From UHGV virus genome UHGV-0201657: a stretch of DNA of 32,319 nucleotides; one strand, written 5' to 3'. A program made the position numbers. This DNA is from a virus. Positions within the stretch are counted from its first letter, which is position 1. Every line of letters starts with the position of its first letter. Positions 12,001 to 18,000 of the stretch are shown one piece after another.

Positions 12001-15000
12001 CACCGGATGCGCTCAGCGGCACCAGTGCGTCGGCAGTGACCCGTGAAGGTGGATATTACGGAATGACGATGGAACCGGGGGAGTATGCGGTTTCGGTGAC
12101 GGTGAAAGGGAAGACTGCTGTCTACGGACGTGTGCGTATTGAGGGGACCGAAAGTACGGTGACGCTCAATATGCTGTTACGCCGCAGTCTTGTTGAGGTG
12201 AGCATACCCGGAGAACTGCTGACAGATTTCCGGCAGATACAGAATAATGTGGCTGATGACCTTGCCACTATTCGTCGCCTGAATGAAGACACGGCGACAA
12301 AAAACACTCAGGCCACACAGTCAAAAGACAGTGCAGCAGCCAGTGCGAAGAGTGCATCTGACAGTGCAAAGACGGCAACCAGCAGGGCGGCTGAAGCCGG
12401 ACAAAAAGCCAGTGAAGCTGCAGAAGCAGCGACCCGGGCATGCGAGTCTGAAAAGGCCGCGGCAGCAGACGCGAATGATGCCAGACAACATGCTGAAACC
12501 GCCAGAGTGGCTCATGAGGCCGCCGGAGACGTTCTTAAACGTGCTGAGGCTGCTACGGTTAGTGCTGAAGAGGCCAGGCGTATGGCAGAGAATGCCAGAG
12601 GCCCTAAAGGTGATACCGGACCGAAAGGTGATGCAGGCCCTCGTGGAGAAACAGGTCCACAAGGCGCACAAGGACCACGCGGTGAAACAGGACCGGTGGG
12701 GCCGCAAGGAGAGCGGGGGATTCAGGGGCCTGCTGGTCCACGAGGTGAAACCGGGGCCAGAGGTGAAAAAGGAGCCCCCGGAGACCCGGGGGGACCACCC
12801 GGGCCGAAAGGTGATGCGGGACCTAAAGGTGACACCGGACCAGCCGGTCCCGCAGGTGAAAAAGGTGAGCCGGGAGAACGAGGGCCTCAGGGAGAGCAGG
12901 GGCTACGCGGACCTGCAGGAGAGAGAGGCCCGGCGGGGCCGCAGGGACCGAAAGGAGATGCCGGTGCGACAGGTCCGGCAGGTCCGAAAGGTGAACGAGG
13001 CGAAGCTGGGCCTGAGGGCCCCCGCGGGGAGCCTGGTCCGGCGGGCAGCGCAGCAAATGTGGTGGACGCGACGACGGCACAGAAGGGAATTGTGCAGCTA
13101 AGTAGTGATACTGCCAGTAATGACGAAACAAAGGCTGCCACGTCGAAGGCTGTGAAGGCGGCAATGGATGAGGCCAAGGCGGCGAGACAGAAGGCAGAAG
13201 AGGTTGCTGCAGGTGGTGGCGTTCCCGGCCCGAAGGGAGACAAGGGCGATACGGGTCCGGCAGGCCCACAGGGACCGAAAGGGGATACGGGAGCCGCAGG
13301 CCCGGCAGGCGCACAGGGGCCAAAAGGTGACAAAGGCGATCCGGGGGTGGCTGGACCAGCAGGTCCGGCAGGTGCGCCGGGGTCGAAAGGCGATAAAGGT
13401 GATCCGGGAGTGGCTGGACCAGCAGGTCCGGCGGGGCCACAGGGACCGAAGGGAGACACTGGAGCCCCCGGGCAAGGAACAGAACTGCTTACTACTGCCA
13501 ATACATGGACTCAGGCACAAACTTTTAATGGTGGTATTAATGGCAATTTGACGGTGACCGGAAACGGCTCATTTAACGATGTTCAGATCCGTTCGGATAA
13601 ACGCAACAAGCGAAATCTGGTAAAACTGGATAATGCGTTAGATCGTCTGGAGGCACTTACTGGTTATCTTTACGAGATACAGTACTCTGCCGACGGTTGG
13701 CAAACGTCGGTTGGTTTAATTGCTCAGGATGCACAAAAAGCATTGCCTGAACTGGTAACTGAAGACGCAGACGTTATATCTGGTGAAAAACGTCTGCGTC
13801 TTAACTACAACGGCATAATTGCATTGTTAGTCGAGGGCTTTAAAACACTTCGTCATGAGATTAAAGAACTCCGGGAGAAGTAAACGACAGCTGTTGTAGT
13901 TTCTGGTTTCTACTGAATTTAAATTGTGGGGTGACACTCACCCCACGCATTCAGAAGGGGGAGATGAGATGGGGGTAACATCGGGATGGGTAGGCTCTTC
14001 GGCTAAGAGCGAAACAGGTGAGCAGTGGATGGGAGCCGCCGGAACCAAACTGGGACTGAGTAAACCTTTTATGATGAGCCAAATGGTTGGGCGAACTATG
14101 GGCTGTAAAATTGCAACTGAGTACTATAAATGGAAATCCTCTGACAAGGTTGATAACTGGGGCGCAGTTGGCGCTGACTGGCCTTTAGAAGAAAAAAGTA
14201 AAGGTACAATTACAAACGCCGCAAGCTGCGGATCAGGGAGGCTGGTAGGGGCTGTCGTTACACTTTCTCACTTTTTGACGAACTCTACACCGACAGCTGC
14301 TGTTTATTTAGCCGGTGGTAAAGCAGGTAACATCACCGTAAACGTAGGTGGTGCTACACAAACCATGATTTATCAGGGCGTTGTTAGTGGGTTCCAGTAT
14401 TACTGGTCAGGTTCTGTTAGTTCCGCTTTCGTGGAGGCAATGAAAAAGACGGGAGTACCCCAGGATCTAAAAATTAGTTAAATGGTAAATGAATAATTTT
14501 AAAAACTTCACGTTCTACATACCGGAGACGCCGGATATATAGGATATTGTTTTAAGTTGCCAGAGAAATTTTTCCGGACGGATGCTGATAATAATGATGT
14601 GCCAATGACGGCAGCATCATTGATGGCACTGAGTGAAGCGACAGAGCTAGCGATGTTTGCGAAGGGAGTGGAGATTAATACACGGCAGTTGCAGATGAAA
14701 GCCGAGGTTGAGGCGCTGACAGACCTGAAGGCGATCCGCAGTTATGTTGTCGGATGGCCTGCTGGCTGAATAAAAAAAAACGGGACCACGGCCAGTCCCG
14801 ATGTAATGAGTTTTAGGGTATTAGTTTGTTATCATAGTTAGCGTGCTAAGTATGCCATATCAGGCTGATTAGTGAAGTGATGTTGTTCGCATTTTTGCAC
14901 GGCGGAGAATATTCAGATTTTTGGAAATCCATATTTTTCCCGTGCGCGATTACATGCTTCATTTACGATGCCATTTTCGCCGGACATTGCGAATTCCCTG

Positions 15001-18000
15001 CATGTGGACGGGCGGTAAGAGCGACTCCTGTACGGGTTGACGTCGTGAAATTGTGCCGGGATTAATTATTCCACCTCGTCTGCCATTCAAATTTTCGGAT
15101 ACCAGATAACCATGCCTTATATCGATATAACCACTATGCGCGGGATGATGCCAGGCGTTATTGCATCTATGCTTCCTGATAATTCTGCTGTACTGGCAGA
15201 AAACTGTCATTTTCGCTATGGCGTGATCACGCCTGAACACGAGATGTCAGAGGTTGAGAAAACATTCACAATTAAGCCAAAAACAATTTTTCATTACCAT
15301 GACGATTTTTGGTTTGCATGGCCGGATGTGGTGGATGTGATCCGCAGTCCGATCGCTCAGGACCCCCACGGGCGTATTTACTACACTGACGGGCGTTTTC
15401 CTAAAGTGACGGATGCGACCATTGCCACAAAAGGGGACGGGAATCACCCGACATCATCGTATCGTCTTGGGATCCCCGCGCCGACGACAGCTCCTGTCTG
15501 TACTGTTCAGCAGGGCGGTGATGTTTCTGACGATAACCCGAATGATGATGAAACCCGGTTTTATACGGAAACCTTTGTCTCAGATTATGGTGAAGAAGGT
15601 CCGCCAGGTCCGGCGTCTCTGGAGGTAACACTCCGTACTCCGGGAACTGCGGTACAACTGACGCTGGCTCCGGTGCCATTGCAGAATGCCAGTATTAAAC
15701 GTCGCCGGATTTATCGCTCTGCATCAGGTGGAGGGGAGGCGGATTTTTTACTTGTGGCTGAACTGGATGCATCCGTGCTCAGTTACACGGACAAAATACC
15801 GGCGAAAAACCTTGGGCCTTCCCTGGCAACATGGGATTACCTGCCGCCGCCAGAGAATATGACAGGCCTTTGCCTGATGGCTAACGGTATTGCCGCCGGG
15901 TTTGCCGGTAATGAAGTGATGTTTTCGGAAGCGTATCTGCCGTATGCATGGCCGGAAGTGAATCGTCACACGACGGCAGAAGATATTGTAGCTATCTGTC
16001 CGCTGGGAACGTCACTGGTGGTGGCGACAAAGGGGGAGCCTTATTTGTTCAGTGGGGTATCACCGTCCACAATTTCTGGTTCCAAAATCCCTTCCATGCA
16101 GGCATGCCTGAGCCGAAGAAGTATGGTGGCGATGGAGGGATTCGTGCTGTATGCAGGAACAAATGGCCTGGTATCGGTTGATGCAGGCGGCAGTACAGCC
16201 GTGGTAACGGAAAAAATCATTTCACCAGAACAGTGGCAGAGTCAGTTTAATCCGTCGTCCATTGTGGCTTACTCATGGCGTGGTGAGTACATTGCCTGTT
16301 ACACGAAACCTGATGGTAAGCAGGATGTGTTTGTCTTCAGCCCGGTGAACATGGATATCCGCTATCTCAGTACACCGTTTGACTGCGCATGGGTTGATCT
16401 CGCAAAAGATATGATGCGCGTGGTGACAGGAGACAAAATGTCAGTGCTTGCTGGGGGCTCTCTGCCGTCCACGATAAGGTGGCATTCAAAAATTTTTTCA
16501 TTGCCTGAAAGAACCTCTTTTTCCTGTATCAGGGTGAAATCTCCAGCACCTGAGCGGGTGGGGATCACCGTTATGGCTGATGATGTTCCTGTTATTCATT
16601 TTGCGCCGGGTACGTTTAAGGGAAGTGTGGTGAGACTTCCGGCAGCAATCGGGCAAAACTGGCAGGTGATGGTATCCGGATTTGGGCAGGTGGAACGAAT
16701 AACCCTGAGTACATCGATGTCGGAGTTACCGATATGAGCAAAAAACCGTGGCGGGCGGGGAAGGATTTATCCGCTGTTGTGGAAAATATGGAAATTGGCA
16801 CCGGGCAGCGTGGCGACGGTCGTCATGCTTTTGTGACCCGTGAAGAGCTGGTTGGCCTTAAACTTGCCCGACGTCGTACACAGGGTGGTGCGGGTACCTC
16901 ATATGCACTGAATCCAGGAGTTGACATTGACAGCACCTTAATGGCTGTTGATTTTCCCACAAAACCACTGAATTTTAAGGCGACCGGAGGATTTGGTTCA
17001 GTTCTTCTGGAATGGGATGTGGCCAATTATCGGGGGCATTCACTGACAGAAATCTGGCGGGGAACGAAGGACGACCTTTCAGATGCTGTGCTGGTTGCCA
17101 CGACACCGGGGCAGGTTTATGGTGATCCGGTTGACCCGGGTTGGTCGGGATTTTACTGGATACGCTTTGTCAATGCAGCGGGAGTGAAGGGGCCGTGGCA
17201 CGCAGTGGCAGGCGTGGCAGCACAGACACAGATATCAGTTCAGGCGGTGATTGACCAGATAAAAGAAGAGGCGGCGAAGTCTCCCGTCATAGAAGAGCTT
17301 CGCAAGGAAATAAAAAACGCGCAGGGGCAGGCTGTAAAGGATGCGGCAATTAAGACAACCGAAGTTGTGGGGGCTCTCAGGGAGGAAACGACAAGAACGA
17401 TTGGTGGTATTGAAACCCGCATAACCACACTGGATTCGTCAACCAGTGAATCGCTTAATGAGGTCGACAAGCGCATCACTAAACTGGATAAAGAAGGCGG
17501 TGAGGCCTTCCTTGCGATGTGGTCAAAAAAAGCGGGAGTTGATGGCATCACTGCGGGGATCGGGATTGTCGCCGGAAAAGACAGTGAAGGCAGGCCTGTA
17601 AGTCAGGTTGCAATTTCTGCGTCACAGCTGTTTGTCTTTGACCCGAATAATCCGGATAACACCGCCTATCCGTTTGCGGTATCAGGTGGCAAGGTAGTGA
17701 TCCCGAAAGCGATGATTTATGACGCGGTGATTGAAACACTGGTGTCGCGGAAGGTTGTGGCGGATGAGGTAAAAGCCGGGGTAAGTATCACTTCGCCAGT
17801 TATCCGGAGTGCCGTTATTCAGAACGGAAACTTTCAGGTTGATTCTCAGGGTAACCTGAATATTGGAGGCCTTTTCAGTGTTACGTCACAAGGGCAACTG
17901 ACAATTCGTTACTCTAATCAGAATGTAGGACTGGTGATCCGCAATGATAAAATTGAGGTTTATGATCAGAATGGACGACTGGCTGTTCGCATAGGCAGAT

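Follow-up and report, generated by a model that had tools for sequence, protein, structure and literature searches.

How does a leftward transcription terminator come to lie inside a rightward tail operon, and does it still end an RNA? The question is raised by a stretch of 32,319 nucleotides (nt) of the virus genome UHGV-0201657 (hereafter, the window), which is the late region of a 933W/Sp5/P13374-like short-tailed phage of the Shiga toxin (Stx) type, with genes for terminase, portal, a collagen-like tail fibre, a Gp38-type adhesin, homologues of L0124 and L0125, Lom and a 2784-residue protein. Between the tail-fibre cassette and the gene of a 541-residue virion protein, a hairpin at 14781-14800 is followed on the minus strand by a tract of nine U. 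The original prediction took this motif and the AT-rich spacer to its right as the sign of an unannotated leftward transcript, either a small RNA (sRNA) or an antisense RNA over the start of the next tail gene. According to our analysis, the hairpin and its U tract are very probably the intrinsic terminator of a ykgJ-like moron, imported together with the tail-fibre cassette from a lambda-like prophage and now orphaned, because the 5' part of ykgJ and its promoter were left behind at the recombination joint. The best-supported description of the locus is ordinary phage mosaic debris rather than a hidden regulatory RNA, and by itself it matters little.

A one-way terminator motif

On the + strand, a TGA stop codon is followed by AT, by nine A residues (14772-14780) and then by CGGGACCACGGCCAGTCCCG (14781-14800). 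Read on the minus strand, the same DNA gives the hairpin CGGGACUG-GCCG-UGGUCCCG, with eight pairs (six Watson-Crick and two G-U; five are G-C), a loop of 4 nt, a folding energy (dG) of -11.6 kcal/mol and U9 directly 3' of the stem. The + strand fold of 14781-14800 is a six-pair stem with a loop of 8 nt, followed by AUGUAAUGAGUUUUAGGG, and no U tract lies 3' of the hairpin on this strand. Because the U tract adjoins the stem on the minus strand only, 14772-14800 is a one-way, leftward intrinsic-terminator motif.

Taken by itself, the folding energy of the minus-strand hairpin is unremarkable when compared with shuffles (z -1.1), and the + strand fold is not better than shuffles (z +0.27). A strict scan of the whole 32-kb window for simple hairpins of at most 28 nt, with dG <= -10 and directly abutting at least 8 T in 9, returned three sites (7401 and 20344 on the + strand, 14780 on the minus strand). 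The mean over 200 dinucleotide shuffles was 0.03 strict sites per window, about 100 times rarer than observed. What is non-random is the combination of hairpin and U tract, not the folding energy. Sequence, folding and strict scan bear out that U9 follows the hairpin on the minus strand only, and the rarity of the strict motif bears out that it is a genuine leftward terminator signal, both as originally predicted. A repeated or mobile element was considered and rejected, as the hairpin occurs once in the window and no meaningful repeats were found around it.

The remains of a ykgJ-like gene

A 100% identical prophage, in strain cM8a, came up in a megablast search of complete E. coli genomes, along with close relatives. 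In the RefSeq annotation of identical and near-identical genomes, produced by the Prokaryotic Genome Annotation Pipeline (PGAP), two pseudogenes are already present at the site. The one to the right of the hairpin, on the minus strand, carries the product label 'YkgJ family cysteine cluster protein' (fragment) and occupies 14913-15032. Its stop codon lies at 14913-14915, with the hairpin 112 nt downstream on the same strand. The last 33 codons are intact and only about the last 39 are in frame; after a 45-nt internal deletion at about 15012/13, 13 further bases match, and homology to intact genes stops at about 15025. From this breakpoint on, the upstream 60% or so of ykgJ and its 5' flank are missing from the window. 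By BLASTP, 29 of 33 residues of the remnant (88%, E 9e-21) are identical to residues 77-109 of an intact protein of 109 amino acids that matches PF03692 (CxxCxxCC) at 5e-12, and the C-terminal RPxxCRxF region of the YkgJ family is thus present. In the longer remnant of a related locus (L002), 45 residues align to the intact protein at 91%. The window holds no full-length open reading frame (ORF) of about 109 codons with the N-terminal CxxCxxCC cluster, that part of the gene being absent, and the 39-residue remnant fragment gives no Pfam match.

The second pseudogene, to the left of the hairpin on the + strand, is annotated by RefSeq/PGAP at window positions 14554-14769 as DUF4376, 'missing N-terminus'. 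The 70-codon ORF found here matches positions 55-99 of the 106 of the Pfam DUF4376 profile and none beyond, which is less than a full-length domain, and the gene is intact (202-224 amino acids) in L002, L101 and L003. We regard 14557-14769 as a pseudogene, not as an independent gene. The flanking fragments are already captured by RefSeq as pseudogenes, and the finding is real but ordinary.

The spacer itself (14801-15111) is only modestly AT-rich, its GC content of 43.4% against 51.5% for the window standing at the 10th percentile of 311-nt windows. It contains two + strand ORFs, of 62 amino acids (GTG start, 14877-15065) and 39 amino acids, which have no Pfam matches; PGAP annotates no + strand gene in the spacer of the 100% identical genome, and both ORFs are an antisense shadow of the minus-strand gene remnant. 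As candidate small proteins, the 62-residue ORF, a minus-strand ORF of 38 residues and another of 93 residues (14959-15240) were rejected because they have no Pfam matches, their ends change among relatives and they are shadows of ykgJ or of the 541-residue gene. Of the spacer as it was first described, the lack of a convincing + strand gene stands, while the AT-richness shrinks to a modest one. The leftward element proposed within it does exist, in the form of the ykgJ stump on the minus strand; as an unannotated sRNA or antisense RNA it is not supported, given the PGAP pseudogene and the chance-level promoters reported below.

Intact modules in lambda-like prophages

A search with window positions 14640-15016 found 41 E. 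coli genomes carrying at least 80% of the stretch. Lambda-like prophages carry, in this order, J, lom, tail fibre, DUF4376, the A-run with the hairpin, a 112-nt stretch and a leftward ykgJ-like gene coding for 109 amino acids, which, when intact, is the last gene before potB or tRNA-Ser (a transfer RNA gene), at the right end of the prophage. Over 14640-15016 the intact modules are about 95% identical to the window, with the same hairpin, U tract and 3' untranslated region (UTR), and the stop-to-hairpin stretch of the intact gene in L101, L102 and L100 is about 95% identical to 14801-14912. Gene and hairpin lie in one transcription unit on the same strand, the hairpin 112 nt downstream of the ykgJ-like stop, and the frame is intact in L101 and L102 and truncated in the window. 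The terminators of two prophage ykgJ-like genes (CP062876, WP_071528431; CP077646, WP_072097927) have the same DNA, orientation and spacing as that of the window. Unlike in those modules, ykgJ in the window is cut off at about codon 60 counted from its end, with its upstream region lost; and, whereas the lambda-like prophages carry the module at their terminus, the window copy lies inside the late operon of a 933W-like phage of podovirus type. The ykgJ-like gene is frameshifted in the prophages of E. coli 55989 and O104:H4.

In a diverged module (type 2), found in strain RM9387 (L003) and in phage 1720a-02, the equivalent position directly after the DUF4376 stop is taken by another hairpin, AUGGGGGA...UCCCCCAU, with CUUUUU behind it. 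In K-12, too, the chromosomal ykgJ has a leftward hairpin and U tract of its own at its end. As type-1, type-2 and K-12 genes each have one, a leftward terminator is a constant of ykgJ-type genes. A covariation test of the type-1 against the type-2 hairpins was set aside, since MAFFT puts the stems out of register. Among type-1 modules the stem is identical in all copies and one loop base varies. The T/A run of the terminator is 6 to 10 long among otherwise near-identical copies (window, L101, L102, L118-L133), a variation due to homopolymer slippage. Copies of ykgJ-region sequence in lambdoid prophages have been described (PMC8112680); attB-in-PP_2 from the same source was considered as a candidate and then rejected.

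Presence, absence and decay among relatives

The region upstream of the 541-residue gene was compared at 91 loci (from IMG/VR and GTDB genomes) that encode relatives of its product. The window and four IMG/VR contigs have the order Gp38, DUF4376 stump, hairpin, ykgJ stump (group a). In L002 and 12 other listed genomes (H5-H17), the DUF4376 gene is intact, and the hairpin is followed by a ykgJ stump longer by 45 nt (group b). About 15 loci, including the O104:H4 outbreak phage P13374, are without window positions 14601-15079; about 50 nt of a different ykgJ allele are left in them and the hairpin is absent (group c, with L006/P13374). The L012-type loci contain the type-2 module and a second ykgJ stump in tandem (group d), and the 933W-type loci unrelated sequence with a leftward hairpin of its own (group e). 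In enterobacterial relatives further off, the leftward cargo is of another kind, e.g. a DUF1493 and STM2901-family pair (group f), and relatives in Vibrio and Photobacterium have gaps of 12 to about 270 nt, mostly below 80, without a terminator (group g). An intact ykgJ at the junction of a phage of this type was looked for among the 91 loci and not found. The remnants can be arranged in a decay series, from the longer one of L002, through the window with its 45-nt deletion, to L006/P13374 with about 50 nt and no hairpin. From this pattern of presence and absence, the place where the tail-fibre cassette meets the L0124-type gene is a hotspot of recombination and insertion, at which the ykgJ material is visibly decaying and the segment 14601-15079 is dispensable. 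Elsewhere among relatives, different leftward cargo at this site comes with leftward terminators of its own.

The junction upstream of the L0124-type gene can also be seen as a hotspot of leftward cargo in Stx-type phages, which may hold genuine small genes or sRNAs. Gene-like leftward cargo was seen only in L062 (DUF1493 and STM2901 families) and L096 (phrog_914). The DUF1493 and STM2901-family cassette lies leftward in L062, L063, L068 and L071 (about 2985-3769, minus strand), next to an L0124 homologue that is 55% identical. In Stx phages of 933W/Sp5 type, the equivalent junction holds another, strongly conserved leftward terminator-like hairpin, GGGGAGCAU(A/G)UUGCUCCCC with U6 (933W, L098, AF125520; locus positions 2826-2846), which is also found in L024-L058 and L069, its first U about 175 nt upstream of the ATG of the L0124 homologue. 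To its right, a conserved stretch contains a short leftward ORF (MMEFAKIAIGIT...) preceded by AGGGGA as Shine-Dalgarno sequence, and the element may represent a real small gene, read leftward, or an sRNA in Stx phages. Leftward ORFs in L012, L026, L034 and L056 had no family matches, and the translated ORFs of L026 and L034 cross hairpins; they are probably spurious and were rejected.

In L012, L016 and L064 (e.g. L012 3464-4000), two remnants of the ykgJ 3' end, from different alleles, stand in tandem, together with an extra leftward hairpin, CGGGGGUUGGUCAUGCCCCCG with U6. This suggests repeated cassette exchanges with ykgJ-like sequence as the right homology arm. On the left side of the junction, comparison of window 13924-14600 with L002 2594-3202 shows that the N-terminal two thirds of the DUF4376 gene gave way to a Gp38-type adhesin cassette, with the joint at about 14556-14569. 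Stx phages of O104:H4 type (P13374) share this joint and are 100% identical up to 14600.

How the terminator may have been orphaned

In the intact donor, the terminator would end the leftward ykgJ-like messenger RNA in a Rho-independent way. In L101 the host genes potA and potB are transcribed towards the prophage and, since the terminator at the prophage end faces this transcription, it would presumably also block leftward read-through from flanking host genes, which would be antisense into the tail-fibre genes. An exchange of tail-fibre cassettes then probably carried the right-hand part of the donor module into a 933W/P13374-like phage, with the right recombination joint inside ykgJ at about 15025, so that the first 60% or so of the gene and its upstream region were left out. 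The 45-nt internal deletion would next have taken more of ykgJ, and a later swap to the Gp38-type adhesin cassette would have cut the DUF4376 gene to its last 70 codons. The surviving terminator would still halt a leftward polymerase; most probably it has no regular transcript to end and is a relic. Late transcription in phages of the 933W type is Q-antiterminated. As the + strand has no U tract and late transcription is antiterminated, rightward transcription would be expected to pass the hairpin unaffected.

Morons of lambdoid phages are reportedly autonomous accessory units, with their own promoter and terminator, between late genes. Like them, the unit in the window is an accessory, non-virion element at a module boundary, in opposite orientation, with an intrinsic terminator and with presence/absence polymorphism among relatives. 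Unlike them, it keeps only the 3' third, the 5' part of the gene is missing and no promoter is identifiable, and we thus speak of a dead moron. The locus can illustrate how orphan terminators and "empty" spacers arise in phage late operons: when lambda-like siphovirus prophages and 933W-like Stx phages exchange tail-fibre cassettes, parts of donor accessory genes come along and later decay.

Several points weigh against this account. The motif, the homologies, the breakpoints and the distribution among relatives are observed; the order of events, the silence of the remnant and termination in vivo are our inference, and the last two of these count here. That the stem is intact beside decayed neighbouring sequence is not statistically meaningful at about 5% divergence. 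The promoter scan was insensitive: it also found none upstream of the intact ykgJ-like gene of L101, which weakens the negative in the window. Finally, in some prophages (L152-L154) the segment is retained in the near absence of ykgJ, as could be expected if it had a function of its own; linkage to the DUF4376 gene, with the segment carried along, explains this retention equally well.

L152-L154 are lambdoid prophages at yecD and ompW. The 3' end of DUF4376 is present in them together with the hairpin and the 112-nt stretch, and ykgJ is reduced to its last few codons. About 230-380 nt of unannotated sequence follow the remnant before attR.

Is a leftward RNA still made?

The surviving segment (14772-14912) might be kept for a live leftward RNA comparable to PasB, be it an Hfq-type sRNA of about 50 nt or an antisense RNA from the 541-residue gene. 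We consider this unlikely. A live RNA is not implied by the sequence, because the part of ykgJ upstream is gone, promoter matches are at chance level and relatives exist without the segment. The minus strand has two 9/12 promoter matches, with 1.5 per kb in shuffles. Among the matches listed in the search with 14640-15016, the segment is always accompanied by the DUF4376 3' end, and it is deleted in class B relatives; conservation independent of neighbouring genes, as expected of an sRNA, was not observed. A known RNA family was rejected: at 13800-15800 (E-value scan, E <= 1) and over the whole window (gathering score), Rfam returned only a chance match to a small nucleolar RNA (E 0.63), and transfer RNA or transfer-messenger RNA was not found.

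The closest precedent is PasB of enteropathogenic E. coli E2348/69, a leftward Hfq-dependent sRNA of 83 nt between the rightward tail genes I and J (PMC8550237; bioRxiv 10.64898/2026.05.13.724894), whose terminator lies 6 nt from the stop of the upstream tail gene. Its layout is the one proposed earlier for the window, that is, leftward, ended by a terminator and between rightward tail genes. However, PasB is experimentally validated, Hfq-dependent and syntenically conserved, whereas the window segment is part of a decayed protein gene, dispensable in relatives. With up to 3 mismatches allowed, the PasB probe sequence was not found in the window. Identity with PasB was thus rejected, the architecture being alike without any sequence similarity. 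The other candidate was EcsR2, an sRNA from the yagU-ykgJ intergenic region of K-12 (PMC4350180). The K-12 ykgJ coding sequence is 79% identical to the window remnant over 82 nt, but the region downstream of its stop is not homologous to the window, and its terminator lies about 20 nt past the stop against 112 nt in the window. EcsR2 was rejected since it is encoded on the strand opposite to ykgJ and since those 82 nt of coding sequence are all that window and K-12 have in common.

Of the two forms that a live RNA could take, the independent sRNA would start at about 14823 from the promoter-like element at 14858-14831 and end at the hairpin and U9, as a minimal Hfq-type RNA with a 24-nt single-stranded 5' part followed by the terminator hairpin and U9. 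We hold it to be improbable. The 9/12 match is found in every type-1 copy, but such matches are equally common in shuffles (the 1.5 per kb given above, against two), and the -10-like elements of type 1 and type 2 are out of register, the best -10 in L141/L012 leaving only about 5 nt before the hairpin. The segment is kept in prophages without ykgJ (L152-L154), but it is wholly absent from many relatives of the same type, P13374 among them. PasB offers a precedent for such an architecture in tail operons, but neither Rfam nor PasB itself shows any similarity to the segment, and the motif is already accounted for as the terminator of ykgJ. If the surviving segment were transcribed after all, it would be an sRNA born from the 3' UTR of a dead gene, lying among the tail genes of Stx-type and lambdoid prophages.

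The antisense form, the second of those originally suggested, is slightly less probable in our judgement. This cis-antisense RNA, about 430 nt long, would start from the element at 15210-15182, cross the start of the 541-residue gene and its leader and end at the hairpin, damping the virion genes, e.g. in a lysogen. Its hexamers match at 5/6 and 4/6 positions with a 17-nt spacer, and an intact leftward terminator lies downstream; however, the match is at chance level. The hexamers are kept in class B relatives, which are without 14601-15079, but they lie in coding sequence, so that their conservation is explained by the protein, and in 933W the -10 reads CGGAAT and misses the key A. Moreover, class B relatives have no leftward terminator in the gap, and promoter and terminator are thus not conserved as a pair. 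The 93-codon minus-strand ORF of this region is an antisense shadow whose C-terminus varies among relatives.

Lower again we place the reading in which the hairpin serves the + strand, as a 3'-end stabiliser, a processing site or a weak terminator that splits the tail-fibre messenger RNA from the virion genes. The hairpin does lie 11 nt past the stop of the last cassette ORF, and the six-pair stem is possible in + strand RNA. However, the U tract is absent on this strand and the fold is no better than shuffles. An A-run followed by a hairpin is the exact mirror of a terminator, type-2 modules and other relatives show this same orientation with different sequences, and relatives manage without the hairpin. 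That a chance hairpin beside a chance A-run was never meaningful, as its unremarkable folding z-score would allow, is hardly credible, since the strict motif is expected only 0.03 times per window, is conserved 3' of intact ykgJ-like genes in many prophages and has a structural analogue at the equivalent position in diverged modules.

Other features of the window

The features of the junction are collected in the table below.

Table. Features around the leftward terminator motif, in window coordinates
Feature	Position	Strand	Basis and remarks
Gp38-type tail-fibre adhesin gene, left part of swapped cassette	13924..14481	+	Pfam Gp38_N 9e-20; PHROG 1121 tail fiber adhesin 6e-60; RefSeq name 'receptor recognizing protein Gp38'
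DUF4376 tail-fibre-assembly-like gene, C-terminal stump of 70 codons	14557..14769	+	Pfam profile; RefSeq pseudogene
U9 tract of leftward intrinsic terminator	14772..14780	minus	reads A9 on + strand
Terminator hairpin CGGGACUG-GCCG-UGGUCCCG	14781..14800	minus	folding, strict scan, alignment of copies
3' UTR of ykgJ-like gene, 112 nt, 37.5% GC	14801..14912	minus	stop codon to hairpin
Weak sigma-70-like match ATGGCA-16-TATGAT in 3' UTR	14831..14858	minus	9/12; speculative, RNA of about 50 nt
YkgJ-family (CxxCxxCC, PF03692) pseudogene remnant	14913..15032	minus	RefSeq annotates a pseudogene with the very same coordinates
Joint sequence, from ykgJ remnant to next leader	15026..15079		common to L002-type relatives only; does not align with intact ykgJ modules or with relatives of classes B, C and D
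Conserved 32-nt leader of 541-residue virion gene	15080..15111	+	homology with class B and C relatives resumes at 15080
541-residue virion protein gene, homologue of 933W L0124	15112..16737	+	PHROG 511 'internal virion protein' 8e-277; homologues in Stx phages
Weak sigma-70-like match ATGACA-17-CAGAAT in 541-residue gene	15182..15210	minus	9/12; speculative, antisense RNA of about 430 nt

Inside the late operon, canonical intrinsic terminators on the + strand were also seen at 7401, 19830, 20344, 20687 and 23404. The terminators of the operon lie after the portal gene, after lom and before the 2784-residue gene, with a bidirectional pair at 750/776, and they are consistent with antiterminated late transcription and moron boundaries. 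The 2784-residue ORF itself (23422-31776, PHROG 616) has a region resembling DarB-like antirestriction proteins and is typical of 933W-like phages. At 12283-13551, long overlapping ORFs in more than one frame and on both strands are not genes but artefacts of the GC-rich collagen-like Gly-X-Y repeats in the tail-fibre gene.

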